Shown: positions 6,449-50,835 of the stretch, in pieces
Position numbering within the stretch: the first letter of the stretch is position 1
How the letters are laid out: each line of letters opens with the position of its first letter
NCBI GenBank assembly: GCA_965153355.1
Contig: OZ231126.1
Span: 11,098,001-11,162,000 of the forward strand
Length of the DNA stretch: 64,000 nt
From: Flaccisagitta enflata
Taxonomy: Eukaryota
Direction of reading: 5' to 3'
The notes under the pieces: model-generated
Databases searched by the model: none
Told to the model about the DNA's origin: nothing
The model's input: the letters and a program-made list of their open reading frames with translations, nothing else
Position numbers and translations under genes: made by a program

Positions 6449-6594
6449 AAACAAGGCCGGCAATCCAGTCGCGGACGGTTTGGCAGGGGCGGTGCAAAAA
6501 CCGCTCGGCATTCAAAAATGTGACATTCAAAAATGTGACGGACGGACCTACCGACCAACACGGCAAGGTGTGGAGTCGCGTGTCCGCGACTAAA
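6449..6594 (-). mobile_element. HINE-like element, family B
   Basis: AACAAGGCCGG...CAGTCGCGGAC...AGTCGCG-tgtc-CGCGACT-AAAA. Confidence 0.75.
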
Positions 6595-6661
6595 AAGGCA
6601 CAATATGAGTATATGACACAGTGTTGTTGTGTTGTGTCTTTGATAGAAGTGATCGAGACTA

Positions 6662-7424: not shown

Positions 7425-7672
7425 GGCATAATTCGAGATTCGCCAGGCCAACTATAAGAAATATGTCCACACTTTGTTACATCAGTATTTTACTGATTCA
7501 TAAAGAAAAATCTATCTATGAGAATTCTAGTACTTTTGTTTAGTTTATGCGCTACAGAAAAAACACTTTGTGATTCCTGAGTTAAAGACAACCCTATGTG
7601 TAAGTGTAAAATCAGTGTGACAGGGCGTGGACATGTTTCTTATAGTTGGCCCGGCGAATCTCGAATTGTGCC
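7425..7672. mobile_element. MITE, ~46-bp TIR, 4-bp TSD TACT (superfamily unclear)
   Basis: tact|GGCATAATTCGAGATTCGCCAGGCCAACTATAAGAAA ... TTTCTTATAGTTGGCCCGGCGAATCTCGAATTGTGCC|tact. Confidence 0.8.
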
Positions 7673-14631: not shown

Positions 14632-14659
14632 TCTTTTCTTGTATAATTTGTTTGATAGA

Positions 14660-14720
14660 GTAATCCGTTAAAAATGGTAATCCGTTATGACGAGTAATCC
14701 GTAAAAACAAGTAATCCGTT
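14660..14720 (-). promoter_or_regulatory. Four GTAATCCGT motifs at exact 17-bp spacing in the LINE 5' UTR (candidate internal promoter)
   Basis: TAATCC starts at 14661, 14678, 14695 and 14712. Confidence 0.45.
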
Positions 14721-14820: not shown

Positions 14821-15939
14821 ATCGATCAATGGCGGTTTTAGGTAGGCAAAACCTGCCCACGATTAGTAGTGAAAAATTGCCACACAATCTAACTTATCGA
14901 TTTCCTCGCACGGCTCTAGTCAACCCTCGTAATTGCCCCTGCCAACACGCAAGCGACTACTAATTGGCCGTGTATCCTGCCTTGTTTAAAAGCCTCATGA
15001 AAGGATTATCCAGCAAAAGAAAACAAGGTTAAGTAGGCTATCATAGGCGCCATTCAGAAAGTAGAATGAAAGCATTTCCAACTGACCAACCAACCAACTA
15101 AATAACCAACAGACACAACATCTTAAAGACATGCTCTTGCACGCGGAAAAAATACAGTGTTGCGTGTCCGCTAGAGTGGTCACAAAATAGGGTCAAATTT
15201 CAAATTTTTGCATAAGAAGGCTTGCATGTGACGGCAGAATCTGAAGGCTCACTGAAGGTTTAAAATGACAAATATTTTTCATCAAAACTAACATGATTAT
15301 TGTATAGTAGTACTTTAAATATGTCATCCGGGAAAATCTGAATGCAAAATTATGATCTATTGATGAATCATGAAAAAAATAACTTAAAAATTGATAATTG
15401 TTAGTTTAAAGGTTTTTTCTAATCTTTTAAAATTGTGAAGTATAAAGATTGAAAGTGAAATAGATGAAATGTATATATATCGCATATCTTATATGATTTA
15501 CACATTTCTAAAAGAAATATTCAATGAAGGTATTAAAAAAAACTGATATTTTTCAAACTATTTATTATTTATTATGAATTTTTGCTGACACCGAAAATCC
15601 CGCTTTTGCAAATGCACCGTCCTAATGCCAAAAGTTGTATACTTTCTTGCGGACACGCAACTCTATGAGAGGCTGTGTTTGTCCTTCAGTCCGTCTGTCT
15701 GTCCATCCGTTTATCCGTCCGTCCGTCCGTCCATCCCTCTGTCAAGCTCGAAAAAAGCATTTCTGTAGGGTTCAACTGAACTCTTCATCTTCCTCTACCG
15801 CATTGTTTTTAGCCGCAGACAAGTCATCTTGGTTGGTTGGTTGGTTGGTTGGTTGGTTTGTTGGTTGGTTGGTCGGTAGATCAGTCCATCTGTCACTCAG
15901 TTGTTCTTGGTAGTGCCAACCCGTCCACAGGGTAATCAG

Positions 15940-18790
15940 CAGACTGGGCCGTAGCACCCTTATGAAGGCAGATTGGCTACCAACAGCAGGGACTGGTTTC
16001 ATTCATCATAACAACAAGATTTGCCAAGTTTCATGACCATATGACCGATTTTACTCATGGCCGCCACCCCCCCTAAAATCCCAGCATGAGTGTTGTTGTG
16101 GTAAAAATTCCAACTTTGGGTCACTTTGGCCCCAAAATTAGGCCCTTTCAAATTTAAATTTTGACCTAAAATCCATGAGATTATAAAACTAGAGCTCAAG
16201 AGATAACTAGTGGTGCAATCCGCATGTTTTTATCTTAATTTGTTGAGATTTGAGAGCGTTTCAAAGATGAAAGGGTATGAGGGTCAAATTGCATCCTATT
16301 TTCAGTGGCAATTTTGAGATTTTTCACATATTTGAACATATTCTGGCTTTGGATGGACCAATCTGCATGAAATTGGTGATCAAATTGAAGAGTTTTTCCT
16401 GCTCTAGCTGATGGTAAAAAAATTTTTGATCGATTTTGCCCTCAATTTTTTTTATTGACTGTAAAAGCAGGTGTAAAAAAGTCGATTTTCTTGAAAATTG
16501 AGCAATTTTGGACAAAAAATTAGACCACTTCCGTTTTTTAAAAAGACTTAAAATCCATGAGCAAAATAAAGAGCTGCTCAAGAGCTAACTAGTGGTGCAA
16601 TTGGCATGTCAATATGTTTTTGCATTTAGATTTTACAGTACTTTGAAAATCAAAGGGTATGTCAAAATGACCATTTATGGTCACTTTGGCCGTTTTGGCC
16701 TCAATATGGAGTCACTTTGTTGTAGAAATCAATAAAAGAATCTGTGAGATTATAAAACTAGAGCTCAAGAGCTAACCAGTGGTGCAATCTGCATATTTCT
16801 ATCTTAATTTGTTAAGATTTTAGAGCATTTCAAAGAGGAAAGGGTAGGAAGGTCAAATCGCAGCTTAAATTTCAATGGCGATTATGACACTTTTCACTTA
16901 TGTCAATATTTCTCGGCTTTGGATGAACCAATCTGCATGAAATTGGTGACCAAACTGAAAAGTTTTTGCTGCTCTAGCAGATGGTAAAAGATTTTTTGAT
17001 CAATATGCCCCCCAATTTCTTTTAATGACCCTGGAAGCAGATGCAAAAAGTGTTTTTTTTTTTTTTTTTTTTGTAAATTGGGCAATTTTGGATAACAAAT
17101 TCGGCTACTTCCAATTCAATAATTGACCTAAAATCCATGACCAAAAGAGAGCATTTTTAGGATAAGGGAAGATGATGTATTTTGAGGTATGTTTTGCCAC
17201 AGTAATTTTGTCAGTTCACACATTACTCATTGTAAATTTGCTTCAGATGGACCAGTTGTCACAAAGTTGGTGACCAAAATGAAGAGTTTTTGATACTCTA
17301 GTTGATTGTAGGAAAAGTTTGGATCAATATGTCGCCCAAAAGTGTAAAGAGGCTCTCAAAGTTGAAAAAAAGAAAGAAATTAGTGCAATTTTTTCAAATT
17401 TTAGGATCAAATAAAAAAGTCATTTCCTATTTGAAAAGTGACTATAAATAAGTGGACGGACAGATTAGCCCAAAATGACAAAAATTAGCAAAACTTTCAT
17501 TTTATCATACCAACTGTTCTTCGAAGCTCTAATAAATCTCTATGCTTCAACATATTGAGATGCCGATTGCACCACTGGTTAGCTCTTGAGCTGTAGTTTG
17601 ATTTGCTTATGAATTTCTTGTCTTTTTCTAGCTCGGAAGCACCAAAATTTTGTGACAAAAGTAACCAAATGGGCATAAAAATACTCTTTTAAGCACCTGC
17701 TTATACAGTCTCCAAAACATTTGAGGGTCATATTGAGCAAAAATTTTACCAGAATCAGTTAGAGCATCAAAAAATCTTCAATTTGGTCACCAATTTTATC
17801 CATATTTGTCCATCCAAAGCCGAGATATATAAAAAAATGTGAAATTTGTCAAATTTGACCCCCAAGTTAATTCGGTAAAATAACCATCATACCCTTCCAT
17901 CTTTGAAATGCTCTCAAACTTAAACAAAAAATGATAGCAACATGCGGATTGCACCACTGGTTAGCTCTTGAGCTCTAGTCTTATAATCTCACAGATTTTT
18001 CTATCGATTTCTGCGGCAAAGTGAACCCAAATTGAGGCCAAAACGGCCAAAGTGACCATAAATGGTCATTTTGACATACCCTTTGATATTTGAAGTTCTG
18101 TAAAATCTAAATGCAAAAACATATTGACATGCCGATTGCATCACTAATTAGCTCTTGAGCAGCTCTTTATTTTGCTCATGGATTTTAAGTCTTTTTTAAA
18201 AATGGTCTAATTTTTTGTCCAAAATTGCTCAATTTTCAAGAAAATTGACTTTTTTGCACCTGCTTCTACAGTCAATAAAATAAATTGAGGGCAAAATCGA
18301 TCAAAAATTTTTTTACCAACAGCTAGAGCAGGAAAAACTCTTCAATTTGATCACTAATTTCATGCAGATTCGTCCATCCAAAGCCAAAATATGTTCAAAT
18401 CTGGGAAAAATGTCAAAATTGCCACTGAAAATAAGCTGCAATTTGACCCTCATACCCTATCATCTTTGAAATGCTCTCAAATCTCAACAAATTAAGATAA
18501 AAACATGCGGATTGCACCCCTAGTTAGCTCTTGAGCTCTAGTTTTATATTCTCATGGATTTTAGGTCAAAATTTAAATTTGAAGGGGCCTAATTTTGAGG
18601 CCAAAGTGACCCAAAGTTGGAATTTTTACCACAACAACCCTTATGCTGGGATTTTAGGGGGGGTGGCGGCCATGAGTAAAATCGATCATATGGTCATGAA
18701 ACTTTGCAAATCTTGCTGTTATTATGAATGAAGCCAGTCCCTGCTGTTGGTAGCCGATCTGCCTTCATAAGGGTCCTATGGCCCAGTCTG
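15940..18790. mobile_element. hAT-like foldback element with ~1-kb inverted arms
   Basis: 8-bp TSD GTAATCAG (15932-15939, 18791-18798) and termini CAGACTGGGCC/GGCCCAGTCTG. Mirror ORFs 15999-16199(-) and 18531-18731(+) are near identical. Confidence 0.92.
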
Positions 18791-19036
18791 GTAATCAGGG
18801 TATACAACCTTATTCTGCCTGTATTTTTCAATTTTTCCTTTCATTCACCTTCTCTTTCTTTATCTTTTTCTTTCTTTTTTTATTCTTCTCCTTTTCCATC
18901 TCCCTCTTCTTCTTCTTCTTCTTCTTCTTCTTCTTCTTCTTCTTCTTCTTCTTCTTCTTCTTCTTCTTCTTCTTTTTCTTCTTCTTTTTGTTCACCTCCT
19001 TTTCATCTTCATCTTTTTCTTTGCTACGATGTTTTT

Positions 19037-19429
19037 TTAGTCGCGGACACGCGACTACACCTTGCCGTGTTGGTTGGTCCGTCGCACCTTGATCTGGCGG
19101 CTTAGAAAAACCCGAGATGAATCTAGCGTGTTTCAATAGCTTAATTTACATGAAAAGCATACTTCTAGTTAACCCAGTAAGATGAAATTTTAACTGAAGC
19201 TCTGCAAAACCATCGGCTTTCTTGATGTAAAATTTCATCCCACTTAGGCAACTAGAAGTATACTTTTCATGTAATTTAAGCTATTTAGATTCATCTTGGG
19301 TTTTTCTCAGCCCCCAGATCAAGGTGCGTCGGTCTGTCCATCCATCACATTTCTGAATTGCAAGCGGTTTTTGCATTACTGCTCCTGCCCAACCGTCCGC
19401 GCCTGTCTTGCCGTGTATCCGGCCTTGTT
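19037..19429 (+). mobile_element. HINE-like element, family B, interrupted by a MITE
   Basis: TAGTCGCGGACACGCGACT ... GCCGTGTATCCGGCCTTGTT. Confidence 0.75.
19085..19326. mobile_element. Transib/RAG-like MITE with 12/12 RSS-like ends
   Basis: 5-bp TSD CGTCG (19080-19084, 19327-19331). Both ends read CACCTTG + 12 bp + AGAAAAACC. The element is almost fully palindromic. Confidence 0.85.
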
Positions 19430-20616
19430 CTCTCTTTCTTTCATTCTTCTTTTTCTTCTTCTTCCTCCTTCTCCTCCTCCTTCTCTTCTTCTTCTTCTTC
19501 TTCTTCTTCTTCTTCTTCTTCTTCTTCTTCTTCTTCTTCTTCTTCTACTACTTCTTCTTCGTTGCTTTTCCTTTGAGTGTATCTGTCTGAGTTTCTGTCC
19601 ATGTATTCCTGGTCATTCCGTAGAAGAAACTCGTACTGCAAAATTGTTGATTTGGGAGTGTGACAAGTGGTTGGACGAAATTATATCTTTGCATAGAAAA
19701 TGAAAAAATGGAAAAATGAAGAACATAGCCGCCTTCCAAATTCGATTGCGGAGAGGACTATGTTTTTTGATATGCAAAAAATGTGATTTTGTAGCTGTAA
19801 TATGATTTCGTCCACCAAAAATGATTTTTTCTAAGAATCTCAATTTCGCTTGTTTTCCAACAAGTTTCTGTCATTCTGATTGGTATTCTGGTCGTTATTT
19901 CAGGTGAAACGATATCACTAGGTGTTATTGCATATATCCCAAGCATCCAGGGAACTTTTTGCTGTCATACCAAGTTGAAATCCTTATTTTTTGTTCACTT
20001 TTTATTGAAATGCAAATTAACTTTGTGACTGCAAATGGCAACCAATACAACAAAATTCTGTCAGTAGGCGTCAATTCTGGCCCATGACAGCCCCTACCCA
20101 TACGCCTCAGTATGTGAATAGCACGCTGAAACAAAAAGAAAAATGAAAACATACATGGCTTGGAGGAAAAACTAGAGTTTGGAGTTTTTGACCAAATCAC
20201 CTAGTGGCATTTAACGTAAGTATATTCTGCAGTTTCTGCATACAAGAGTGCGTATAAGAAGAGTATTCAGTCTGAAATACGCATTTTAACGTTTTTTTAA
20301 GTTTCTCCACTAAAACTAAGTTTTCATATGAGAGAAGTTTCCCTAGAAGCTAGAATCTAACTGATATAACACATAATTAACTTTCTATGTGATGTAGTAA
20401 AAAATGTGTAGGTGAATTGGTGAAAACATTGATTTTTAGTCAGAATGACAGGAGACGGTGACAAACAAAATAAGTATTGTTGAATTAATTAGAGACATTC
20501 AACATTTTACGCATTAGATTTTTTTGCCAGTAAAAAAAAGTGTCACGGCACTCATCACTTATTCAAAAGCTATCTTGCTCATCACTGGTATTCGAATCAT
20601 TTCCTCTCTCTCTCTG

Positions 20617-20692
<76 letters not shown>

Positions 20693-20948
20693 TCACCGGA
20701 ATTTGCGAGGCGGTAATTCAATGATCGAAGAAATGGACCGCGACCGATGGTATTCTTTTCTCGGTTATTTCAATCTGTTTTATTATCACCCTAATCAATC
20801 GATATTTAGTGTAACTGGCTTTCGCCCTTCCACCTGGCCTCGAATTCTATCAATTTTTCTATCTGTCAGTCAGTCTGCCTGTCTGTCAGACTGTCTGTCT
20901 GTCTGTCGGTCGGTCGGTCGGTGAGTCGGTCGGTGAGTCGGTCGGTCG

Positions 20949-20992
<44 letters not shown>

Positions 20993-21074
20993 GCCTGTCT
21001 GTCTGCCTGTCTTCCTATCTGTCTATCCGTTTGTCGGAAAAAACTGTTTGTCTGCCTCTGTGCATCGGTTTGCT

Positions 21075-21169
<95 letters not shown>

Positions 21170-21841
21170 GATCTTGGTTGGGCGAATGGATCATTTGCCA
21201 CCTGTTTCTTTTACCTATTAAGCGTCATGAATTCCATGTAGCTTTTCTCATGTTTTTTTATGTTTGCGCTGAATAAGACTTCATTTACTTCTGTTAAACG
21301 CGTCACAAAAAACCAACGGGAAACTACAAAACAAATATTTCTTTAAAACCAAAGATGGTGGTATTCATCACATTTAGATTTTCATTTATTTTAATCTATT
21401 ACTGCGTTTTTTGTCATGAGAATGTTATTACGCCAGTGATAACAATTATTCCTGACTGGCAAAGTAATGTATAAACGTTTTCTTTTACTTTTTTTATCAA
21501 TAACCTGGGCTGTGTCAGTCAGTCTGCATCAAGTTGTGTTTTCTCATTTCTTTGAGAGTGGCTTTTTTTCATCAATGCTTTGATCAAAAAACCAAAATCG
21601 CTTTTGCATCTATGCCCTTACATACCCGCATATGATTAAAGGACTTTAAGAAAAAAATATGACCTGTCATCTAAATATCTTTCCAGAAACATCCTCTTGT
21701 AGTTTATTTGTAGCTTCACCATATCACTTTGGGAATTGATGCTTATAGGATGTAAACATAGAAATATTACCAAGGATCTCTTGTTATTCTTTGCTTATGT
21801 GTTGAATCATCTGTGTCTCTGTGTCTGTCTCTGTGTCTCTG

Positions 21842-21935
<94 letters not shown>

Positions 21936-23619
21936 CTTCCCCCTCTTCCTCCTCTTCCTCCTCCTCCATCTGAAAAAAACTGAAACCGGACACGCATTTT
22001 GGCGTCAAATACATTTTTGCGTCACATCAGCAACTTCCGGTAGAGGTGGCGTATAAAAAAGCGTATAGGTAAACTCTAGGAAAAACGGTTTGAGAGCTCA
22101 TGCGGTCACCAAAATTGCAACGCCAAGTTGACCGTTTTTGTGCATTTTTTGTTCTTTTCTTGACATTTTCGCCCCATGTATACAGTTAAAACATCCTAAG
22201 ATGGTCAGATGTACCCCTGGGAGGTATTTTAGGAACCCTTAAACAAATTTTTGAGATGTTGGGTGGCTTTTGGCATCCATATCATATGCAAAATCATGGT
22301 GAGCTAAAGACTTTTTTACTGAAAAGTTAGCCGTCATAAATGTACCAAATGAAAAGGTTTTCCCACAAGTAGAGGTCTGAATTTGAAGGTTAAACCATGG
22401 CGGCAAACTATAGGCTTCCTATGGCAACAAAGAAGTCCCCATAGCAAGCCTATGGTTTTGCTGACAAGGTTTCTTGTTTGATTTCACACCCCAGCTTGTG
22501 AGAAATCCTTCTTTTATTGGACATTTGTACAAAGGGCTCAAGTATATCAATATATGAAATTTGACCCAATTCCGGACCACCCTAGTGTCCGCGTGGGATA
22601 AAGAATAGCGTTTTGGGCGTATAGATAGAATCTTTGAGCAAGAAGCAATGCAAAAAGTTTGTTCGCATAACATCGCAAACTAAACACAAGCGAAAAAGGA
22701 CATACAATGCATATGATACAAGCCTTGATATTCGAGCAGTATTACATTTTCGATTTAGTAGAGAGCATGATAGTTGGGAGAAGAAATGTCTCAAGCTGCA
22801 ATTTATCTATACAAAAAAGAAGAAAGCCTAAAATTGGATGAATACATAGCAAAAATGGAGAGAATGAGCTGAAATTTGCTAGAATTAGCTAGATTTACTA
22901 GAGGTTTTAAAGAAAATCACTAGATAATATGCAAGGAGATAAATTAGAAACTCTTGTCGCTAGGAGGACCCAGAATTCGCCAGAAGTAGCGACACTGTCT
23001 CTGATTTAGCAGCGAGATCGACTAAATTACTTTTTTTTTCTGGAGTTCATGTTCCGATTGAATTCATTTTTTAAATTGATTTGATATGAAAGAAAGAAGA
23101 GAGTGGAACATGGTTAACATATGCGCTGGTATCAATATTTTCTTTTTGAAATCAATGAATTGTTCTATAAACTACTGACAATGGTTGCTTTTAGTATCAA
23201 CGGGATTTGTTTGACTAATGTGCCGACTGCATTTGTTGAAATAGATTTTTTGTCAGTCTCCACCTTAAGATAACTCTAAAGTCACGAGAATCGCATGGGA
23301 ATCATACGCAGGATTTTTCTTTTTAATTTCACAATCGTAAAATTCGATCGAATCCATTTCATATTTCGTGTGGCCTGGCAAGGCTTTACTTGAAAGTGGA
23401 TTATTGCTGGCAGCTTGAAGTGCCTTCAACTTAAATACCTCTGATTCAGCGTTCAGCCTTTAGTACCCAAACCTTGCTTTTATCCGTAACACATTTTACT
23501 ACTTATACCTGTTACACCTTTAGGCCAGCCGGTCACGAGCCGGATTATTGCTGGCAAGTTGTTTGTAAAATAAGAGGCCGAGGTAAAACAAACGAGATCA
23601 TGGAGACCCGGTTAGATAT

Positions 23620-24470
23620 GAGACGAGAGATAAGAACGCCCGGAGACTAGATGAGAAATGAGATCGTTTGAAGACTAAATTAGGGATGAGAACGCATGGA
23701 GACTAGATTAGAAATGAGATCGTTTGGAGACTAGATTAGAAATGAGATCGTTCGTAGACTAGGTTAGGAATGAGATCACTTGGGGACTAGATTAGAAATG
23801 AGATCGTTTGGAGACTAGATAAGAAACAAGATCGATTGAAGACTAGATTAGGAATGAGAACGCACGGAGACTAGATTAGAAATGAGATCGGTTGGGAGAC
23901 TAGGTCTGAGATGAGATCAATTAAATACTAGATATGAACAAGATCGTTTGGAGACTAGATTAGGTATGAGATCACATGGGGACTAGATTAGAAATGAGAT
24001 CGTTTGGAGACTAGATAAGGAACGAGATTGTTTGAAGACTAGATTAAGAATGAGAACGCATGGAGACTAGATTATAAATGATATCATTTGGAGACTAGGT
24101 CAGGTCAAATGAGATTAATTGAAGACTAGATATGGAACGAGATGGTTTGGAGACTAGATTAGAAATGAGGTCGTTTGGAGACTAGATCAGAAATGAGATC
24201 GTTTGAGGACTAGATTAGGAAAGAGAACGCGTGGAGACTAGATTAGAAATGAGATCGTTTGGAGACTAGATTAGAAATGAGATCGTTTGGAGACTAGATT
24301 AGGAACGAGATCGTTTGAGGACTAATTAGGAATAAGATCAGAAATGAGATCGTCTGAAGACTAGGTTAGGAAAGAGAACGCATCGAGACTAGGTTAGGAA
24401 TGAGATCGTTTGGAGACTAGATAGGACACGAGATCGTTTGAGGACTAGAATGTAAGGTAGACTAGATTGA
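23620..24470. repeat. ~28-bp minisatellite GAGACTAGATTAGAAATGAGATCGTTTG
   Basis: Visible degenerate tandem array, followed by GAGACGGACCAGA repeats to ~24680. Confidence 0.9.
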
Positions 24471-25175
24471 ATGCCGTTAAATATTTCGAGATCGTAAGGA
24501 AAAATGAATATTCAAGACCGCCAATGAATGGAGTAAACTAGATTAAATGCTATCAAACAGGCGTGGACCAGACTAAATAGCCCACGAGACGGACCAGACC
24601 AGGCAGAGCACGAGACGGACCAGAGTCAATCGCAACCGAGATGGACCAGATCAACCAAAACGCAAGACGGACCAAATCAGACGTTCGTGGAGGCAGACCA
24701 GTCCGACATCATTCAAACCATGTGACCAGAATCAAAGGCGGCCGCGTAACGAAAATAGTCCAGCGTGAGTTGTAATTCTAGAAAGGAAAAAGAATATCTG
24801 ACCCGACCAGGAACGAGGAGTGTTATATCTGTTTCTGTTTTTGTTCTTGTTTTGTCTTTTTTGTTTTTTTTTTGTTTTTGTTTTTGTTTTTTTGTTTTTT
24901 TTGTTTCTTTTTTCTCCTCTTTTTGTTTTATCTTGTTTTGTTTTGTTATCTTTTTCTTTTGAAGTTCCCACCGTATCGGGTCAATATACAAAAAAAGGAT
25001 AAACCCTTTCCCCTCTCCTCTTACTTTTACTCCAGGCGTGTGACTCATGAAAAGGCCAACGACGGCAAAGACTCAAAACTGCAGAGACAGGACACAAGAG
25101 GCCCCCCGGGTCCGGCCTGATGTGTGTGTGTGTGTATGTATGAGTGTGTGTGATTGTGTGTGTATGTGTGTGTAT

Positions 25176-25250
<75 letters not shown>

Positions 25251-25508
25251 TGCGGGTGTGTGTTTATATTTTGTCCGGTTGTGTTTGGTTTGTGCATGCA
25301 AGTGTGCATTTGCGTGTGTATGTTGAGTGTGTGCATGTGTGTGTATTTGGAATAAATATATAAATAAGGCGCGCCTGACTAGAAAATGGGTAAAGTCGCG
25401 CGTGACTAGAAAGAATGACCAATATTAGGCCGGGCCAAATATACATGAGGAGAGAGTAGGGGGGGAAGCAAAGCCAAAAGCAGCAAATCCACCCAAATAA
25501 ACCCAAAT

Positions 25509-26400
25509 CTACCTAAATAAGTCCCACCCTCTATACCCCACCCCATCCAAAATACCACACCACTCCACCTCTCCTCCTTCCACCATCCTCCCCAACACGC
25601 CACCTATCAACACAGATGCCGCAAAACACCCAGCCTTCTGTTGCCACATAGCCAATATCCATTCCTCTCCCAACTGCTTCCTCAGTCTTCCCACAATCAG
25701 ACTCCACACCCTTTCTACTGCTACTTCCACACTGCCGAGCACCAACCCCCGCATCATGTGTACCGCCAACCGGAGCTCAAATCCCAACCTCCTCCGAAGT
25801 CGGTCCGCCGCTCTCTCCCCCAATGGCCCAAATGCCATCTCCCCCTCCACCACCTGCATGTCGACGACGCGGATGAGAGTCGGCTCCAACTTCCGCCATA
25901 GACGCCGAACCACCTCACACTCGATCACCACATGCCACCTCTCCCTTGCCACTTCTCCGCACAACCTGCACTCCCCGTTACCATCCCCAACCCATGTGGC
26001 CATATGTGGGGTCCAATAATTGAGCCCCACCTGTTTCCAAATATTGGAGCGAACACGCAAAGAACACGGCGTTGAATGTAGACGCCGCCATATATTGGGC
26101 CAATGCCCGTCCAGAGATGCGCCAAGCGCCCGTTCCCACTTCTCCTCATAATGTCGAGAGCCACTGCATGCCCTTCTACGGAAGGCCACGTAGAGCTCTC
26201 TGTAGGAGACCCTTGTGTGGTCCTTTCCCTCTTCGGATATATCGAAGAGGTAGTGAGGCTCACTCAAGGGCATTTCGGGAGCAATACCACGAAGGCGGGC
26301 CACCTCGTCCCACTTGCCGCGCCCACCCAAACCTAGACCGGACAACGTCCACAACGAACGAACAGACGTCACATCCCGAAGAACAAGCCAAGGGACAGAG
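25509..26400 (-). pseudogene. L1/Tx1 ORF2 C-terminal (zf-RVT-like) region
   Basis: KWERALG...WPNIWRRLH...IWKQ...CRLCGEVARERWHVVIEC...RRLW. Confidence 0.8.
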
Positions 26401-27737
26401 CGGAGCGGAGCTCTCTGTCACCCGCCCAACCATACACCACATCCCATTCCAACCTCTTCCTCTCTTCTTCCAACCTTCGCACATACTCCCTCCTCGCTTC
26501 CGCTTTCTCCCTACTGTAATCCACAGTCACAAGACGCCACACCTCTTTCGCCCAGTCCTACCACTCTCCATCGTCGCCAAAATCCCCCTTCCCTTCTCTG
26601 ACCTCTCTTATTTTACCCCTTAGAAGTTCAGTGTAAGACCTGTCTCTCAACAGGCTCACATTGAACTTCCAATAGCCTACCCCTTGCCTGACCTGGTCCT
26701 CTATCTCAACCTCAAAAACCTTGTGCCCGCTACTGACCCCATCTGCCCAAAAGTAGCGGCACCCTTTCACCCTTCCAGCTGTCACTCCGTCCAGGTACAT
26801 CCTGTCAATCCTACTCCTGTGTAGCCCCTGCTCGTAGGAAAAAACAATGTCCGTGTTTCCGTCCACTCTAAAAGCGTCACACAGACCAGTCCCCTCAAGC
26901 ACACTGGCCATATGACAGCCGCACTTAGTTCCCTTAGGATGAGATATTTTGCCAAAAATCAGCAAAAGTGACTTTTTCAAAAAGCGTTTTTTGTTAAACA
27001 TGGGGCAAGTATATGATCTCAGTTGGTCATATGAGTAAAAAAAAAATCAATTTTAACACGCCTGGATCTGAACAGGCCCCTCTGTAAGACCACTACTCCC
27101 AGTTTTTTTCATTTTTTGAATCTTTTTACCCTATTTTTTAATAGGAAAATGTAGTTACACAGATAGAGGTTTCAAACCAACTGAGCCATGTATCTGACCC
27201 CCCAAGGATACTTTCTGAGGTTATTTGTCATAGAGGGACTGATTCTTCTCTTTACCTATCTTTTTACTCCTCTTTTTACCTGTATATTCTCTTTTTGACA
27301 ATTCTCAGCTTTTCATAGCTGTAACTAGTAACGCAGGCACTTGCAGCTATTCCTACCACAACTAATTTGAAGTACTTTGGGTGCCTATATATGGTTTTGC
27401 CTGCGTCCAGTTGCGACCCAGGGCTCTATTGGCCTTAAAAGTCAACCTATCTGGAATCTTGATGGTAAAAAATGTCAGCTATTTGGTAAAAATGATCGAA
27501 ATATTTTAATCTTCAGAAAATCCTAAATCATCCTCTAGGTAAGCCACAGTACTGGGATTGGACTCCTTTGACAGTATTTTTTAAGTAGTTTATCTGTGTA
27601 AAATTTCATGTGAATCGGTTGAGCGGTTTTTGAGAAAATTGAACTTCTTTTTCAAAAATGAAAAAAAAAATTATCATCTTAGGAAAATTTCGATATTTCT
27701 TCAACCGTTTTATTCTATGAACAGAGAGAGAGAGAGA

Positions 27738-27935
27738 ATCTTGACCCCTGCTTTCCTCCAATCTCCATGTAAATCTCGCGCGTTGTTCCAAATCTTGTTT
27801 TCATTATTGTTCTTAGATTCTTGTTCAAATTATTTAGGATTCTCCACAACTTTCTTCTTAAACCTTTTTTCCACATTATGGTCAAAAAGTCGTCATTGCT
27901 CACATTATCATATGCCTTACTTACATCGTAATATG
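27738..27935 (-). pseudogene. RT fragment related to the 9469-12867 LINE family
   Basis: YYDVSKAYDNVSNDDFLTIMWKKGLRRKLWR...EIGGKQGS parallels FFDVQKAYDHADPDDMLYIAWNSGLKGKIWR...EIGGKQGG. Confidence 0.8.
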
Positions 27936-27965
27936 TGATATAAGTGCGAAATAAGGAAAGAAAAA

Positions 27966-28122
27966 AACAAGGCCGGATACACGGCAATCCAGTCGCAGAC
28001 GGTTGGGCAGGAGCAGTAATGCGAAAACCACTCAAAATTCAAAAATGTGACGGACCGACGGACGGACCGACCTACCGACCGACCAACACGGCAAGGTGTA
28101 GAGTCGCGTGTCCACGACTAAA
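27966..28122 (-). mobile_element. HINE-like element, family B
   Basis: AACAAGGCCGGATACACGGC...AGTCGCGTGTCCACGACTAAAA. Confidence 0.75.
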
Positions 28123-28399
28123 AAGAGGAAAAAGGCGAAAGAGAATAAGAAATCGTTAAAAAGACAGAAACAGAAAAAGATTATCATCCATTATTATCCA
28201 TTGTTATCCATTATTATTTATTATCCATGTCATTCTTTAACCTGTTCCTCTGAATTTACAATAATTCCAATCCTAAGGAACTGCAATGTTTCTAAAGGAG
28301 CCAAGGCAACTACAGTGAAAAAAAATGTATTACAAAACCCACTGTCCCCCTCACAGACTTGCAGTACCTAGAATTATAACAATATTCTTCCCAAACTCA

Positions 28400-28654
28400 G
28401 GGCGTGTTTCTAGTGAAGACAAACAACGCATACACTTACGCCAAACGTATTTTCAGTATGAAGACATATTCATAAATTTGAACTGTCCCACAAGTGAGCG
28501 AGCCCGTGAATGGAGTGAGCGAGCAAAGCGAGTGAGCGAAGTGAGCGTATTATAGTAGAGTAAGTGAGGGGAGTGAGCAGTGCAATTGAAAAGACGTAGC
28601 AAGTGACCCAGTGACCCTTTCAAAACACAATTGTCTCTGACTAGAAACGCACCC
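28400..28654. mobile_element. PIF/Harbinger-like MITE
   Basis: tca|GGGCGTGTTTCTAGT ... ACTAGAAACGCACCC|tca: 3-bp TSD and GGG termini. Confidence 0.5.
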
Positions 28655-28743
28655 TCACTTAGGCACTATGATCTGCATGGTCATGAAATAGAGAATAAAA
28701 TAATTTTAAAAATCTTTATTTTATCAAAGTTTTATTATTGTTT

Positions 28744-29409
28744 TTTAGTCGCGCGCTACACGACTCTACACCCCGCTTTGTCAGTCGGTGCGTCCATCTG
28801 TCCGTTGGTCTGACCATCTGTCCGTCAGTCCGTCACACAATTTTTTCGGCTTTCATGGGGTTTTTGGCTGTACCGCTCCTGCCCAATGCTCCACTGACCT
28901 CAAATATGGCCCCTACCCACCCGCACGCAAATGGGGTAGCCGTGTATCTGGCCTTGTTATAAAAATTGGAGAATTGAGCATAGATAATTTATTATGAAGA
29001 TTTTATAAAAAAAACATAAATAGGCTTACAAAACACTTTAAAGAATTGTATGCAACTTCTAAACAAAAGCTTTGTCAAAATATCATAATACCTTTTTCAT
29101 AATATCATTATGAAAAAGTTTTTAACTATTTTTAGGCATATGCACACAACTCTACACCCCACTTTGTACATCGTTTGGTTGGTTGATTGGTCACATATTT
29201 TTAGTTGCGTGCAACGCGACTCTATAACCCGCTTTGTCGGTCTGTCTGTTTGTCCGTCGGTTGGTCTATCCGTCGGTCCGTCACACTTTACTTTTTTTGG
29301 GTTTTTGCGGTCTTTGGCCTCACTGCTCCTGCCCAAATGATTGAGTGACCTCAAATTCAGCCCCTGCCCACCCGCACGCGACTGAGGTAGCCGTGTATCC
29401 AGCCTTGTT
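28744..29409 (+). mobile_element. Two HINE-like elements (28744-28958, 29199-29409)
   Basis: 5' hairpin, CCGT microsatellite and GTAGCCGTGTATC(T/C)(G/A)GCCTTGTT ends. Confidence 0.7.
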
Positions 29410-29539
29410 TTATTCAGTGACGTCACTGCTGCTGCCTGATGGTCTAGTGACCTCACATATGACCCCTGGCACATGACGGGGGTAGCTGTGAATCTGGCGT
29501 TGTTTTGATACAAGTAATAGTATTTTTAAAAGATGATAA

Positions 29540-29850
29540 AAAAGAAGAAAAAGACAAAATATGACAAAAATGACATAAATAACAAAAAAGACATAAATGA
29601 CAAAAATCACAAAAATCACAAAAATGACAAAAATGACAAAAGTAACAAAAATGACAAACATGAAATAAATGACAAAAATGATAAAAATGACAAAAATGAC
29701 AAAAATGACAAAAATGACATAAATGATAAAAATGAAAAAAATGACAAAAATGACCAAAATGACAAAAATGACAAAAATGACAAAATGACAAAAAAGACAA
29801 AAGTGACAAAAAAAGAGAAAAAAATGACAAAAAAATGACAAAAATGAAAA
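29540..29850. repeat. 9-bp tandem repeat (AAAATGACA)n inside the 23/23 element
   Basis: Directly visible. Confidence 0.9.
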
Positions 29851-32655
29851 AGAATAGAAAAAATAATATTTTTCATATTTAGTATGTAATTCTACAGTAT
29901 TATAACATAATAAATCCATCAGATGATTTTTGTCCAATTTTGAGTCGCTCTCAGAACATAGTGGGCCGCAAGCAGCCTCCCACGTGCTTACAGCGCCCCC
30001 ACACCTATCCAAGCCATCCACCACAAAATTCCAGTCACCCATCATTACCACCGGCACACTGTCATCCACGGCCACCTCCAGGCTTCGAATGAGCCCCGGA
30101 GTACCAGCCGCCCCTGGGTAGCCGTAGACTACCACAAGGTCCATTTCAAACAAAAACACCACACTCCTCACTCTTACCACCATCAACCTGCCAGCACTCA
30201 ACACCCTTTCATTCACGACCTCAAACTCACGCGAAATAACCAAGCAGACACCCGCATACGTATCCCCCTCCGCGTGTCCTGAGTGCAAGACATGATGAGA
30301 TAACCGCATGTCTTGCATTGGTTGGCACAACTGCTCGATATCTGAGCAGTGTGTCTCTTGTAGGGCAACGGCCCCAATATCAGATCCCCGCTGTATATAA
30401 GAGAGGATCCAAGAACCCTTGTATCGGGCTCTTGGTCCCCCTCCCAATCCATTGGGGTTATATGTCAGGAAACGCATAATCGGAGGAAAAGAGAAACACC
30501 AGTCACGCCAACACTACATACCAAGGCCAAGAAAGGCAAAAAACGCGCTCACCACCATTGCTTGCCAAGGTCAACAATTACTCCCATACTACCCTTATAG
30601 GCAGATGAGAGCACCTATCAACCCCCCCAAGCAACCATGGTAAGCACAGGATAACCAGCCCACCTAACCATTGCTACCAAGCCATGACCAGAGGCGATTC
30701 TAGCCTACCCTAGGGCCAGCCAGAATCGACCATAGACATGGCAAGGCAACAATATTTAGGGAGGGAGGCTAAAAATACACAAAAAAGGCGGAAAAAAAAA
30801 CAAAAACGGAGCCAAAACCGAAAAAGGCCAAAACCACCAACTGTTTCCCCCCCTACTGCCATCCAATGCCAATGGACGATTTCGGCCTACTCTAAGATAG
30901 GCCAAGATCGACCAAGGTCAAAGTAAGGCAGTAATGAGTAGGAAAAGAAGGCAGTACAAATAGGCAGAAAGGCAAAAAGGGGCGCCCCAACAGTAACGAG
31001 AGAGAATACAAAGGTCCCCCACACTAATCAAGCATGGTAGGACCCCCTCCCGCTATTGTCCGAGTGGGGAACCCGCGCCAAACCTAAACCAAACCAACCG
31101 GATTATTAGTGGCGATTCTGATGGCCCAAAACAGCTGTTTGGGTGGCCAGCCAATCAGGTCTTTCAGTTCACATCTACCTAACCAGCGGCCAACCAATCA
31201 GAGTAAAGTGACCATCCATCTCGCCAGTAATAATCCCCCGGAAGGTTATAAAAGGCAAAACGGAACCAGAAAACCAAACGCGCGAGGCGTAGCAGCTAAA
31301 CCAGGCGAGGGAGAAAACGACGAAAAAGAAAAAGGAAAAAAGAGAAAAAACAGAAAAAGGCAAAACGAAAAAGAAAAGGCCGGAACAAAGACGAAAAAGG
31401 CAACTAAGCAAGCGACTACGGGGAAGAAAACCCAACTCAATTCAAAGGTGAATTGAATCAAGCCCTCTTCCCAAGCAACAACGACGACGACAAAAGGCCA
31501 AGATGGGGGAAGTATCGACCAAGCAAGCAAGCGACCAAGCGAGCAACCAAGTGACCAAGCTGACCAACCAAGCCAGCCGCCAATCAGGCGACCTGGCTCT
31601 CAAGTGAGCGGGCGATCAACCTAGCAAGCGAAACGACCAAGCAGGCAGACCTTCCCCCTACCCATCAACCAAGCAACCAACCGGGCGACCAAGCGAACGA
31701 CGACAGGAGGGGGGGGGGACCTAAAGTCCTCCCTTTCCTCCCTTTTGCCCACCTCTGGACTGCGCCCTGCTCTGGCGCTGCTGCTGTTGGCCTGGCTGTT
31801 TCAACAAAGCAACCAACTCACGCTGGCTAATGCTAGGCATTTCCTTAGCGTCCCTGCTGACACTCAAATTCCTCTTTGCGTTACTATTCATCTCACCATC
31901 GGGATCAAGAGTTTCATCGCCTCTCGCTCTCTTCAATGAGGCACTGCGGTGCCTCGCGTCCTTGTTTTGGAGTCGAGGGATGGCCATTTTTGGAGCCGTT
32001 GATCCGGAGTAGGCCGACATGGCTGCGCTGCCAAGGGCCTGCAATCTCGCCGAGAGATGCTGGAAGGAACTCGGAGGGTGCTGCTGCTGCTGCAGCCGCC
32101 ACCGCGACTGGTGCTGGTGTCACGATGACCGCGACATGGCCGGATGAGAGCGCCGGGGAGGCGCCAAGAGCGCCGTCCGCGATGCTGTGGTTGATGCTGA
32201 TGCTGTTGTTGTTGCTGTTGAGGCTGGAGACACACGAAATCATCTCCGGTGTCAGTGCGAATGAGCCACTTTCGCTGCCGCTACTTCCTCCTCCTCCTTC
32301 TCTGAAGCCGTCAGCTTCTCCAAGGTGGCTGCTGCTTTTGCTGCCTCATCCTCCTCTTCCTACACCTGGCTGCCCCAACTGACGTTGCCTTGGAGTGTGT
32401 CGTCGCCTTCTTCAACTGGGACCACCACCTCCGCTGCTTCCGCGACTCTCTTCTTCTTCTTCCTCCTCCTCATTTCCTTTGGAGCCTGTGAGGATTCTAC
32501 TATATCCTCCTCCTCCTCCTCTTCCACTTCGCCTCCTTCTCCTGCAAGACTGAAGAGGGCATCCTGCGTCGATGTCGCTGCTGATGCTGCTGATGCTGCT
32601 GTTGTCGAAGACGAAGCTGCCGCAAACGGAGCCGGTGATTGGCCGGCCACTGGTG

Positions 32656-33750
32656 CACAGTGCGAGATTAGAGGAAAAAATTTTAAAATGAATAAAATGT
32701 GTCATAGAACATCATCTTGCTACTCTTTTAGTTTTTTCAAAACGTCTCAAAACGTCACCTCCGTTTGGGAAATATGGTGATTTTGGGGGTTGGGTGGCTG
32801 TAGGGGTGCCCGAGGTGGTGATAAAGGGGGTATTTGGGGTGATTTTGTATTTTTAGGTTAAACTTCCCTCTGGTATATCAAAATCTCGCTATGTGATGGT
32901 GATTTTGGGGGTTGGGTGGCTGTAGGGGTGCCCGAGGTGGTGATAAAGGGGGTATTTGGGGTGATTTTGTAATTTTTGGTTAAACTTCCCTCTGGTATAT
33001 CAAAATCTCGCTATGTGATGGTGATTTTGGGGGTTGGGTGGCTGTAGGGGTGCCCGAGGTGGTGATAAAGGGGGTATTTGGGGTGATTTTGTAATTTTTG
33101 GTTAAACTTCCCTCTGGTATATCAAAATCTCGCTATGTGATGGTGATTTTGGGGGTTGGGTGGCTGTAGGGGTGCCCGAGGTGGTGATAAAGGGGGTATT
33201 TGGGGTGATTTTGTATTTTTAGGTTAAACTTTCCTCTGGTATATCAAAATCTCGCTATGTGATGGTGATTTTGGGGGTTGGGTGGCTGTAGGGGTGCCCG
33301 AGGTCGTGAAAAAGGGGGTATTTGGGGTGATTTTGTATTTTTAGGTTAAACTTTCCTCTGGTATATCAAAATCTCGCTATGTGATGGTGATTTTGGGGGT
33401 TGGGTGGCTGTAGGGGTGCCCGAGGTGGTGATAAAGGGGGTATTTGGGGTGATTTTGTATTTTTAGGTTAAACTTTCCTCTGGTATATCAAAATCTCGCT
33501 ATGTGATGGTGATTTTGGGGGTTGGGTGGCTGTAGGGGTGCCCGAGGTGGTGATAAAGGGGGTATTTGGGGTGATTTTGTATTTTTTAGGTTAAACTTTA
33601 CTCTGGTATATCAAAATCTCGCTATGTGATGGTGATTATGGGGGTTGGGTGGCTGTAGGGGTGCCCGAGGTGGTGATAAAGGGGGTATTTGGGGTGATTT
33701 TGTATTTTTAGGTTAAACTTTCCTCTGGTATATCAAAATCTCGCTATGTG
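32656..33750. mobile_element. Transib/RAG-like non-autonomous element with asymmetric ends
   Basis: Perfect 5-bp TSD TGGTG (32651-32655, 33751-33755). Left end CACAGTG-CGAGATT-AGAGGAAA, right end CACATAG-CGAGATT-TTGATATACC-AGAGGAAA. Confidence 0.85.
32774..33750. repeat. 8 x 122-bp tandem repeat of the element's right end
   Basis: CTCGCTATGTG ends at 32895, 33017, 33139, 33261, 33383, 33505, 33628 and 33750. Confidence 0.95.
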
Positions 33751-33954
33751 TGGTGGTTGCTGCACTGCTGCCGCTGTCGAAGTCGTTGTTGATGGCGCCG
33801 GTGCAAGTTGCGTCGGCGCTGTTGCTGCTGCAGATGATGATGATGATGAAGTTGGAGGGAGTGTTGCTCTTGCTGCTGCCGAAGTTACTGTAGCAGTTGT
33901 GGAAGATGTCGAGGCCGTTACCACTGCTGCATATGATGGCAACGTCGCCGTCGT

Positions 33955-34880
33955 TGTTGTTGTTGTTGTTATCCAGCATGTCGTATTATTCTGGGCTTGA
34001 TGGTAGATCCGCCGTCGATTAATCGAATTAATGGGACGGGTCCCATACCGGCGGGAACCATCTAGGGTGGTGGTGGCTCAGGAGGAGGCCGTCTCCTTCG
34101 AGTTGCTCTGGGAGGAGGAGGGGGAGAAGGACCCGAATCCGGCAGGTCGGAGAAGGATGGAAGGGAAGAGAGAAAGGCAGCCGCTTCACGGGGACGTTCC
34201 CATAGATCCGAAGTCGTCAAATTGGTCGGATGCGATGTACAACTAAATAAATGACTAGATGAGTGTGTTGCTGACTGACAATCCGGACAGAGGTCAGAGG
34301 CGGAACGACCAATGCGGTGGAGGTAGTCGTTCAGGTGAGCACAGTGGCCAGAGCGCAGTTGACTAAGAACAGTGCGGGTACGACGAGGTAGGGATTTCTC
34401 ACTCGGGTGGATTAGCGGTGGAGCTGCATTCAAAACGCGGTTAGGCTGGAAAGCATCGACAACGTCACTGACAACTTGGACATGGAGCCGGTTCTTTTTT
34501 GGATTCAGGACGGATAATACCATCATCAGCCACAAACGGGGAGACGGCATCCCAGCACTTTGAGCGTAATGACTCCTTCATCTTCCTGGGGCCAAGTGGT
34601 TGTTCATTGACGATTCGATGTGAAGGATGACTGGGAACAAGCGCGCGAGCCAGGTATTGCGATGACAATAGGTGGAGATGCTCTTTGACTGGAAGAATTT
34701 GAGTTTCCTGATGGATATGATCAACAGACGCCGCTTTGTGGGCACCAGTGATGAGACGTAGACATTTGTTTTGGATCAACTGTAGGCGATTGATAGACGA
34801 CGGGGAATAGTTGGGATAGACGATGGGGGCCGCATAGTCGAAGAATGGTCGAATAAGGGCCTTGAACGTCATCGTCAAGC
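33955..34880 (-). mobile_element. 5'-truncated LINE (I/Jockey/Ingi-group-like ORF2 C-terminus)
   Basis: 13-bp TSD ACGTCGCCGTCGT (33942-33954, 34881-34893) and a (CAA)n tail. Protein motifs FKALIRPFFDYA...LQLIQNKCLRLITG and LSQLRSGH...CPDC...HLFSC. Confidence 0.88.
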
Positions 34881-36409
34881 ACGTCGCCGTCGTCGCCATG
34901 TCTCCCGATGGCGGTGCATAAGGAGGGCATGCAAACTCCTTATGTAATCGGGTGCAACGCATGCATCCAACCTTGTGATGGCGGTCCAAGCATCCATCGT
35001 ACGGGTTGTCGGCCACCTGAAAAGAAGCTATCGCCTCCTTCCCCATCTTATCATTGACATCAGTCCGCACCCAACCCATCACCTTTCGGGTTCCACCTGC
35101 GGAGTAGTGGATCCCGTCTCGGTCGAGATCTTCGGGGTCGAAGACGAGGGTGTCGAGGTCGATGAAGGTGCAGCCTATTTTCGTTGCCGCTCGCTTTGCC
35201 TCTGCGTGGGTGAAGCGGCGATAATCATACTCCGGGCCATAGCTGATTTCACCGACGAAAGGATCGACGATGAAAATAGAGCGGTCGCCGTTGTTTAGAG
35301 GGGACAACACCTTGCAGAGCTCCTCAAACTGACGCTCCACCATCTCCTTCGCGTCATCAAAATCTCGGCCGTTATTGTTACGGCCCACCGACACGATCAC
35401 AATTTCGCCGTAAGGAAGGATGGACGGATCATTGTTTATGTGGTTCGCCACATGTCCAATTTTCGCGCCGGGGATGGCATCCACCCGCATTGAAGCGTCG
35501 TCCTTCAACATTCTCATGATGCTGTCGCCGAATAAGAGGATTCTTGGCGGGGTAGCTGCTGCCGATGCCGCCGCCGCATTCCTCCGCCTGCGATTGCCGC
35601 CGCCTCCGTTGCTACGCTGTTGCCAACGTGGGCACTGCCCATCCTTGTGCGTGTCGTTGCACTGCCCGCATTCGAAGGGTTACTGCCTATACACGATTTT
35701 AAAGGTGTACTCCACCCCTTCATCCGACGTCCACTTGTTGAAGCGTGGTAGATGGCGACTTCCAATCTCCACCAATGCCTCCCTAACACCATTATAGATG
35801 CCAGACGCCTCCTCATGCTCCTTGCTGACGGTTGGCTGGACGATGACGCATCCGTAATCCTGCATGAAGGCGTCGAAATATTCGTCTCCTACCAACACCA
35901 TCTCTCCTTCATACGTTTGGAAGAATTTAACCCAGGTCGCGGGTTTATTCGACTTCCTCCTCCTCATCGGTATCGTCGTCTTCGTCCTTCCCTTCTCCAC
36001 CTTCAACTCAAACTTCTCCAACACCGCCGCCGCCTCCTTCGTCCGCGCCGAGACGTTGAAAACGCCGCGCTTCCTGAAGGCGTCGGTGATGACGACATTG
36101 TTGAGGATTGTCGTTCCGTGCTAAATCCTTTATCTGCTCCCGGAACGCCTTGGCCACCCACGCCACGTCGATTCCGAGCTGCGAGGGCACGCCAGAACGC
36201 CCGGAAAAGTCGAGGGTGAAGAGACGCTGCGACGCCGCCGCTGTTGACGTCGTCGTCGTCATTCTCGTCGTCGTCGTCTCGCCTACAAAAATAATGCACA
36301 GTCCACACAAAACACAAACGCACAGTCCAACAAGCAGATCCTCGAAAAAGTTACTCGATTCAAGAACGTCGCCGTCGTCGTCAGCGTCGCCGTGATAGAC
36401 GCCGCCAAT

Positions 36410-36450
36410 CCGGAAGTGGCGCCGCTGAACCGGAAGTGGCGCCGGAAGCG
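36410..36450. promoter_or_regulatory. Tandem CCGGAAGTGGCGCC (ETS-like) motifs upstream of Tx1-like ORF1
   Basis: CCGGAAG occurs three times within 40 bp. Confidence 0.35.
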
Positions 36451-36646
36451 CAAAAGACGTCAAAAACAGTCCAAAATCAATATGGGTATCAAACGAAAGG
36501 TCGCGCGTCGATTCGAGCCAAAATTGGGCCAAAATTTGGGCAGAATTTGGGCCAGGCGCGCGGGATTGAATAGCGATTGAATAGCAGAAGTTGCAGAAGC
36601 AGAAGTTGCTAAATTACACCAAGTCGCCGTTTTTTTTTTTACTATA

Positions 36647-50233: not shown

Positions 50234-50778
50234 CTAAAACAAAACACTTGACTTGATAACCGCCAAGTTAGCGCCGGACGCGTTGCACAAAAGCGCAATC
50301 ATCTTCATCTTTGTCGTTTTCAATGTTGTGGACACGTCAGGATCGTCTCCCACCACGTCACCACCTCCACCACCTCTGCAACTAGGCGCCACCTCCGTCG
50401 CTTCCGCTTCTTCGGGCGCGATCTTCGTCGGTCGTTTCTTTAGTTTTTCACGCCGAAAAAACACGACGACGACGACGAGAATGACGACGACGCCAACCAC
50501 GAGCAGCCACAACAAATGAAGAGGAGAGAAAGTTTTCGTCGTCGTCGATCGGATTACGACGACCCCGTCATCCTCCATTTGTTTCTAATGAACGCATTTG
50601 AAAGGACAGATAGAGACAAAGAAAGACAACTGTAATCTACTGACTTACTACAGTTCAAATTGACTCATGTCTCCGCGCGCTCCCCCAGCACCGCCCACTC
50701 CTCCTCAACTGTCACTTACCTCTCCCACCTCCTCGGCTGAATGTACTTCGCCACTAAAACCACTCCATCAATTTTGAC

Positions 50779-50835
<57 letters not shown>

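Follow-up and report, generated by a model that had tools for sequence, protein, structure and literature searches.

Within a 64-kb stretch of the genome of Flaccisagitta enflata (GenBank assembly GCA_965153355.1, contig OZ231126.1, positions 11,098,001 to 11,162,000; hereafter the window), three non-coding elements that we call E1, E2, and E3 are probably non-autonomous DNA transposons of the Transib/RAG-like (RAGL) superfamily, an assignment that is well supported by the hallmarks of their ends and flanks and to which we give a probability of roughly 0.78. The window, in which all three were searched and scored, has a G+C content of about 41% and contains non-long terminal repeat (non-LTR) retrotransposons and many microsatellites. 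The elements carry the hallmarks of the superfamily, namely CAC...GTG termini and a target-site duplication (TSD) of 5 bp. All six ends read as a preliminary description of this DNA had placed them, and its view that the elements are unrelated to each other is confirmed by BLASTN of ends and bodies against the window, in which E1, E2, and E3 are mutually dissimilar. The 5-bp TSDs it had reported are exact in E1 and E3; E2 has only four of five positions alike, and the 5-nt length is fixed there by two protein homologues, P0001 and P0003. The TSDs are also GC-rich as it had said (80%, 100%, and 60% G+C against about 41% in the window), a weak point with three cases. Transib was described by Kapitonov and Jurka (2005, PMC1131882) as the only eukaryotic DNA-transposon superfamily with 5-bp TSDs and GC-rich targets. 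DNA ends alone do not distinguish Transib from RAGL as the mobilizing enzyme.

The pattern of nonamer-like boxes at the ends does not go beyond chance, as discussed below, and the case for insertion therefore rests on independent evidence. E1 (19085-19326, plus strand) is a 242-bp palindromic MITE (miniature inverted-repeat transposable element), CACCTTG...CAAGGTG, flanked by the TSD CGTCG at 19080-19084 and 19327-19331 (5/5 alike). Its terminal inverted repeats (TIRs) are about 41 nt per arm, at 19085-19125 and 19286-19326. Counted together with the near-palindromic TSD, the arms are 47 nt long and 91% complementary, and BLASTN aligns the element to its own reverse complement at 75% over 257 columns, so that E1 is a near-palindrome over its whole length. 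Its ends and TSD had been correctly described; the near-palindromic build had been overlooked. E1 lies in a dispersed repeat resembling a short interspersed nuclear element (SINE), and all four other copies of this host repeat that were aligned from the window lack it. The gap at the empty site spans alignment columns 57 to approximately 295, with an edge blurred by a (GGTC/CGTC)n stretch of the host repeat. E1 is an insertion, as shown by these empty paralogues of its host.

E2 (26922-29963, plus strand) is a 3042-bp non-coding composite with the termini CACTTAG...CATAGTG, flanked by AGCCG on the left (26917-26921) and GGCCG on the right (29964-29968; 4/5 alike). At least three copies of the SINE-like repeat lie in its interior, together with a minisatellite of 9-bp period (29529-29864) and a fragment weakly matching reverse transcriptase. 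The element splits the endonuclease domain in open reading frame (ORF) 2 of a retrotransposon on the minus strand, the upstream piece of which matches Exo_endo_phos with an E-value of 7.2e-06. This upstream piece has uninterrupted metagenome homologues in P0001 (306 aa, 87% identical) and P0003 (319 aa, 82%), both of which are continuous across the E2 site, reading ...STWEAACGRHMASVLEGTGLCDAFR... (shorter extracts WEAACGRHMASV and STWEAACGRHMASVLEG). The corresponding pieces in the window end upstream in ...STWEAACG and start downstream with GCHMASVLEG.... When E2 and one 5-nt copy are deleted, the codons TGC GGC CGT CAT ATG are restored with no residue gained or lost (codons read by hand), which sets the length of the duplication at exactly 5 nt. 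GGCCG was the original target, and the left copy has undergone a later G>A change. Continuity across E2 is settled because the homologue search found P0001 and P0003; BLASTP of the APE domain across E2 against the ORF2 of the window's intact retrotransposon gave no meaningful alignment, and Pfam returned 0 families for the piece downstream of E2 even at an E-value of 10.

E3 (32656-33750, plus strand) is 1095 bp long, with the termini CACAGTG...CTATGTG and the TSD TGGTG at 32651-32655 and 33751-33755 (5/5 alike). In it, a unique left part of 118 bp (32656-32773) precedes a tandem array of 8.0 units that are 122 bp each (32774-33750, 98% matches). The coordinates and ends given for it previously stand, and this two-part structure had gone unnoticed. 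The non-LTR retrotransposon copy interrupted by E2 is also the host of E3, which splits its ORF1. The flanks of E3 lie in one minus-strand reading frame, in which the first TSD base is at codon position 2 in both copies (determined by hand), and they align to adjacent stretches in the low-complexity middle of the ORF1 homologue P0008, a protein of 904 aa with a GDSL-esterase domain. P0008 is colinear with the window from approximately 36.6 kb down to 31.7 kb; at 49% identity in a low-complexity region, this colinearity is visible and the residues at the E3 junction are not resolvable. The search for an uninterrupted E3 site found none among near relatives and only P0009 among representatives, and extending it to longer proteins yielded P0008.

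Public sequencing runs containing this stretch comprise two runs of one organism together with marine and seawater metagenomes (17 rows, 9 studies). The contigs of four runs (X1 to X4, of which X3 and X4 are metagenomes) were compared with positions 29870-32900 only. One 93%-alike paralogous contig from X1 (record 6) matches the left flank of E3 and ends exactly at 32655, with 25 letters left over. The right end of E2 is multicopy: the summed contig depth over its last 94 bp in X1 is 38216, compared with approximately 1500-2200 in neighboring bins, and likeness to this end breaks exactly behind 29963 in 9, 11, 7, and 4 contigs of X1 to X4, respectively. In addition, two metagenome contigs carry the flank from 29964 on, with 1 of 261 letters differing, after 68 and 170 letters that have no match.

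The two ends of each element were compared with one another by gapped alignment against 500 shuffles in which the heptamer was kept. The ends of E1 score 97, against 15.6 ± 5.1 in the shuffles, none of which reaches this value. Both read CACCTTG, followed after a 12-bp spacer by AGAAAAACC (19104-19112 and, reverse-complemented, 19299-19307), which is 8/9 to the nonamer of the recombination signal sequence (RSS). The ends of E3 score 30, against 11.8 ± 4.2, with a single 10-nt gap, a score reached by 1 of 500 shuffles. On the left, CACAGTG is followed by CGAGATT and by the 8-nt box AGAGGAAA at 32670-32677; on the right, reverse-complemented, CACATAG and CGAGATT are followed by 10 extra nt (33727-33736) and then by AGAGGAAA at 33719-33726. 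The two ends thus share the heptamer, the adjoining CGAGATT, and a box that is shifted by exactly 10 nt. When the window was scanned for CAC and GTG termini that are separated by 60-6000 bp, have an identical 5-bp direct repeat outside, and agree at 10 or more of 14 terminal bases, only the two pairs of E1 (13/14) and E3 (12/14) came up; in 30 Markov controls the average was 0.5 pairs and the highest count 2. In E2, CACTTAG (26922-26928) is followed by a 23-bp spacer and CCAAAAATC (26952-26960), and on the right, reverse-complemented, CACTATG (29957-29963) is followed by a 23-bp spacer and ACAAAAATC (29925-29933). These boxes are 7/9 and 8/9, so the 23/23 spacing previously assigned to E2 can be read as described, by a criterion that does not itself exceed chance.

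Several results weigh against placing E1 to E3 in the Transib/RAGL superfamily. Each element was read in one copy at one locus, and the evidence from TSDs is n = 1 per family. The likeness of its two ends does not by itself set E2 apart from chance, as its score of 18 compares with 11.5 ± 4.4 and is reached by 49 of 500 shuffles, which is not significant. Of the 17 ORFs that overlap 26960-29500 and have a length of 55 aa or more, 10 were searched with Pfam and yielded only RVT_1 (E 0.038) and a PT repeat, and nothing Transib-like. None of the 18 ORFs in the window that are 180 aa or longer was recognized as a transposase; they were judged by eye, not all having been scanned with Pfam, to be retrotransposon, host-exon, or low-complexity frames. 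In metagenome contigs of the JGI, a 22-nt pattern of the E3 left end and a 21-nt pattern of the unit end had 0 matches each. If each end must have such a box (7/9 or better) and the TSD must match at 4/5 or better, E1 and E2 are found, and the controls give a mean of 1.16 pairs, with 2 or more in 37 of 100. At the right end of E3, the best box at 22-24 bp is 5/9, and no nonamer-like 9-mer is present. The sequence TGGTG is also contained in ATGGTG, with which the 122-bp unit begins, meaning that the right TSD could in principle be a truncated unit. Finally, summed contig depth, the quantity used here for abundance, is not equal to copy number.

The alternative that survives best accepts that the insertions are real and holds that the labels 12/12, 23/23, and 12/22 given to E1, E2, and E3 are over-read, the A-rich boxes being subterminal A/T tracts without a spacing rule; the elements would then carry no information on recognition over one turn as opposed to two. 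We regard this as a serious contender, if one somewhat short of even odds. Under the criterion of a nonamer-like box of at least 7/9 at 12 ± 1 or 23 ± 1 bp, 52 of the window's 1601 CAC sites (3.25%) qualify by background, and the combined search just described is matched in over a third of its controls. Boxes of at least 7/9 at exactly 12 or 23 bp are seen at five of the six ends of E1 to E3 and are missing at the right end of E3. For E3, the left half of the 12/22 label can be read, with AAAAAATTT (7/9 to the Transib consensus) following after 12 bp; the right half cannot, as only AGAGGAAA and the 10-nt indel are found there. In E1, boxes of 8/9 at 12 bp agree with the 12/12 label, but this symmetry arises because the palindrome is built from one end type, and the label says nothing about the two ends of its parent element. 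The same ends can also be read with a weaker, Transib-like 6/9 box at 23 bp. Moreover, Carmona et al. (2016, PMC4840297) reported that the TIRs of HzTransib resemble the RSS nonamer little or not at all. Against these points, the two best boxes of E2 both fall at 23 bp even though the spacers are only 10/23 identical (hand count), and both end in AAAAATC like the published consensus. The E1 box matches the RSS nonamer at a level (8/9 or better) reached by only 8 of the 1601 CAC sites (0.5%), and the 10-nt difference between the ends of E3 is the asymmetry seen in 12/23 Transib families and in the hemichordate element PflRAGL-A. Nonamer-like boxes are thus present but are not shown to exceed chance, and that the spacings of 12 and 23 mean something functionally is unproven and, in our estimate, somewhat doubtful.

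The tandem part of E3 deserves separate treatment. Each 122-bp unit ends in the right terminus (...AATCTCGCTATGTG, also given as ...CTCGCTATGTG), which gives E3 eight candidate right ends. The array is made of whole units only, and its phase coincides with the terminus of E3. In the sequencing runs, the summed contig depth of the unit is 652,316 to 1,315,382 in X1 and 335,383 to 559,693 in X2, compared with depths of 84-123 for contigs with unique sequence at the locus and a maximum of 7188 in the bin that includes the E3 left part (X1). By this measure the unit is at approximately 10^4 times the depth of unique contigs, and the same contrast between unit and unique sequence is seen in the metagenome runs X3 and X4. 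Junctions between units appear as joints that go back by 122 and as loose ends before 32774, with a consensus ending in ...CTCGCTATGTG, in 30, 26, and 6 contigs of X1, X2, and X4, respectively. The 122-bp unit is accordingly a very abundant, mostly tandem repeat of the source organism, far above the abundance of the left end. As in transposon-derived satellites, the monomer is found both inside the element and as an abundant tandem repeat, and because it ends exactly at the terminus, every unit carries a complete 3' end. A satellite formed from a complete 3' transposon end is the only unexpected part of these findings.

This abundance raises the question of whether E3 is a transposon at all. 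A 122-bp satellite array could instead have landed or expanded in ORF1, with the CACAGTG start and the TGGTG repeat being coincidental. Consistent with this, the unit lies far above the 118-bp left part in the X1 depths just given, and the TGGTG behind the array resembles the start of the unit. Nevertheless, we consider such an origin improbable. The left boundary is a perfect CACAGTG that forms a 14-nt inverted repeat with the unit end (12/14) and includes the box past the 10-nt gap, and the same 5-mer stands on both sides, flush with CAC and GTG, while the flank past the right TGGTG follows the unit at only 3 of 7 positions (counted by hand). In addition, the flanks are in frame and colinear with the intact ORF1 homologue P0008, a paralogous contig ends exactly at 32655, and the array ends at the terminus after a whole number of units.

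CACTA-type elements have 2-4-bp TSDs. Membership of E1 to E3 in another CAC-ended superfamily, i.e., CACTA/EnSpm, Chapaev, or Mirage, is brought to mind by the E2 termini CACTT.../CACTA..., of which only the right one reads CACTA, but it is very improbable: each of the three has a 5-nt TSD (without mismatch in E1 and E3, and through the protein-level empty site in E2), a length which excludes CACTA-type families and which the 2005 study held to be unique to Transib among eukaryotic superfamilies (PMC1131882).

Published Transib and RAGL elements provide close parallels to each of the three layouts. The consensus Transib end is given as CACAATG, a 23-bp variable spacer, and AAAAAAATC, and most of the 21 families of the 2005 survey are RSS23-like at both ends (PMC1131882). 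E2 resembles these symmetric families in its CAC heptamers, its poorly conserved 23-bp spacers, its 9-mers (CCAAAAATC and ACAAAAATC against AAAAAAATC), its 5-bp GC-rich TSD, and its character as a non-autonomous element with an unrelated interior. It differs in heptamer positions 4-7 (CACTTAG, CACTATG) and in its host, a marine planktonic animal instead of fly, mosquito, or sea urchin. According to the text and the legend of Fig. 4C of the same paper, Transib5, Transib2_AG, and TransibN1-3_AG combine an RSS12-like end on the 5' side with an RSS23-like end on the 3' side. Mixed end layouts within one genome are therefore not new, 23/23 and 12/23 Transib families having already been reported from one genome in 2005. 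These points on Transib were repeated by Yakovenko et al. (2021, PMC8355894), and Tao et al. (2022, PMC9435367) describe asymmetric TIRs in Transib subgroup I and both kinds in subgroup II.

E3 is similar to the asymmetric 12/23 families and to subgroup I in having a 5' end that falls short of the 3' end by 10 nt, or about one helical turn, a perfect CACAGTG on the short side, and a 5-bp TSD. Unlike them, it has no nonamer-like 9-mer on the right (at most 5/9), shares the box AGAGGAAA between its ends, and has a tandemly amplified 3' half. Its order of parts is closest to the description of PflRAGL-A (Martin et al., 2023, PMC10462144), in which a heptamer, TR2, a spacer with 10-bp asymmetry, and a nonamer-like box are accompanied by 5-bp TSDs. 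The two have in common the heptamer, an adjoining conserved block (CGAGATT in E3), the 10-nt asymmetry, an A-rich box, and the 5-bp TSD, but CGAGATT is not A-rich like TR2, and no RAG1L or RAG2L genes are seen here. HzTransib (Hencken et al., 2012; Carmona et al., 2016, PMC4840297) is comparable in its 5-bp TSDs with a slight GC bias and in its need for the CAC of the heptamer. According to the latter report, it transposes a 12/12 RSS pair and hardly a 23/23 pair; as this takes place in vitro without RAG2, a 12/12 MITE such as E1 is a plausible type of substrate, although the TIRs of HzTransib itself show little or no nonamer similarity and the E1 box is 8/9 to the RSS nonamer. Satellites derived from transposable elements are as such well known, as laid out in a review (PMC9659126), the main text of which has Transib once, as a reference-list entry. 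In Tetris TIR-220, Xstir from Xmix, and miDNA4, all treated there, the terminal part of a non-autonomous transposon has become an abundant tandem monomer, as in E3; what sets E3 apart from these examples as presented is that its monomer ends exactly at the transposon terminus.

Taken together, these features suggest how the three elements may have arisen. A RAG1-core-like DDE transposase encoded elsewhere would bind the CAC-heptamer ends and the subterminal boxes, excise the element by nick-and-hairpin cleavage, and integrate it with a 5-bp stagger at GC-rich sites. Each element entered an older repeat, a SINE-like element in the case of E1, and ORF2 and ORF1 of one retrotransposon copy in the cases of E2 and E3. 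E2 shows the classical Transib layout, with a heptamer, a 23-bp variable spacer, and an AAAAATC-type nonamer at both ends. E1 is a foldback MITE in which a single end type is repeated and an RSS-like nonamer follows after 12 bp. The ends of E3 are asymmetric: the heptamer and the conserved 7-nt CGAGATT are followed by a box that is displaced inward on the right by 10 nt, or one helical turn. Its right-hand 122 bp including the terminus has been amplified in tandem, and as a family forms a very abundant satellite-like repeat.

The retrotransposon split by E2 and E3 is one decayed non-LTR copy on the minus strand (25509-36613). Its ORF1 runs from approximately 36613 to 31721 with a GDSL-esterase domain (Lipase_GDSL_2, 1.1e-05) and also has zinc knuckles. 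Its ORF2 has an APE endonuclease from approximately 30477 and a tail reaching 25509 (zf-RVT, 0.0091); it seems to be without most of the reverse-transcriptase domain, as the endonuclease and the zf-RVT-like tail are separated by no more than about 300-650 bp. An intact-looking non-LTR retrotransposon with two open frames of 599 aa and 1132 aa (9469-14667, minus strand) belongs to a different family, there being no BLASTP similarity between the endonuclease pieces. The SINE-like repeat has at least 10 partial copies in the window (19022-19443, 27956-28125, 28745-28960, 29205-29415, 6455-6600, and others), of which one hosts E1 and three lie within E2. It has a (GGTC/CGTC)n core and the conserved blocks ...ACTGCTCCTGCCCAA... 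and ...GCCGTGTATCC.GCCTTGTT, and neither a tRNA scan nor an Rfam scan had any match in the window, and hence none to this repeat.

Several other structures are present in the window. A further palindromic, CAC-ended MITE of 247 bp, E4 (7426-7672, plus strand), has inverted repeats of about 44 nt and an end-to-end score of 84.5 that is reached by 0 of 500 shuffles. Its ends start with CA(C/T)AATTCGAGATT, and the start CACAnnnCGAGATT is common to E4 and E3. E4 is flanked by a 5-bp repeat, TACTG, only if its ends are taken as G-CAT.../...GTGCC, one to two bases outside CAC. A fifth Transib-like candidate at 16065-18665, with ends 14/14 alike and a TSD of 4/5, was rejected as its inverted repeat extends far outside the proposed termini; the region 15935-18795 is a foldback-type structure with outer arms of 596 nt that are 94% complementary and with further inner inverted repeats. 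A 28-bp minisatellite at 23642-24449 has about 25 copies (76% matches) and higher-order periods of 56 and 84 bp, and an exon resembling LDL-receptor class A was recognized by eye at 50754-51875.

E1 to E3 are real elements, probably of the Transib type, a kind whose ends have been known since 2005, and both asymmetric and symmetric Transib/RAGL TIRs have already been discussed by Tao et al. (2022, PMC9435367) and Martin et al. (2023, PMC10462144). What the three add is a set of Transib/RAGL-type families from a marine planktonic animal, and, inside a single retrotransposon copy, every type of end layout on which published arguments for a descent of RSSs from such ends already draw. They confirm published ideas on the origin of the RSS without changing them. 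Two points stand out, namely a 12/12 MITE, E1, with an RSS-type nonamer matching at 8/9, and a 122-bp satellite monomer that is a complete 3' end. It is conceivable, if rather unlikely, that the genome houses a live Transib/RAGL system using one-turn, two-turn, and mixed pairs of ends, in which the long 3' end of the mixed family has become one of the most abundant satellites. If so, about 10^4 potential transposase cleavage sites would lie in tandem arrays, and such a genome would lend itself naturally to testing how asymmetric spacers are read. The response of a RAG-like nuclease to thousands of single ends could be seen in it too, for example through decoy binding, changes in array length, or chromosome breakage.

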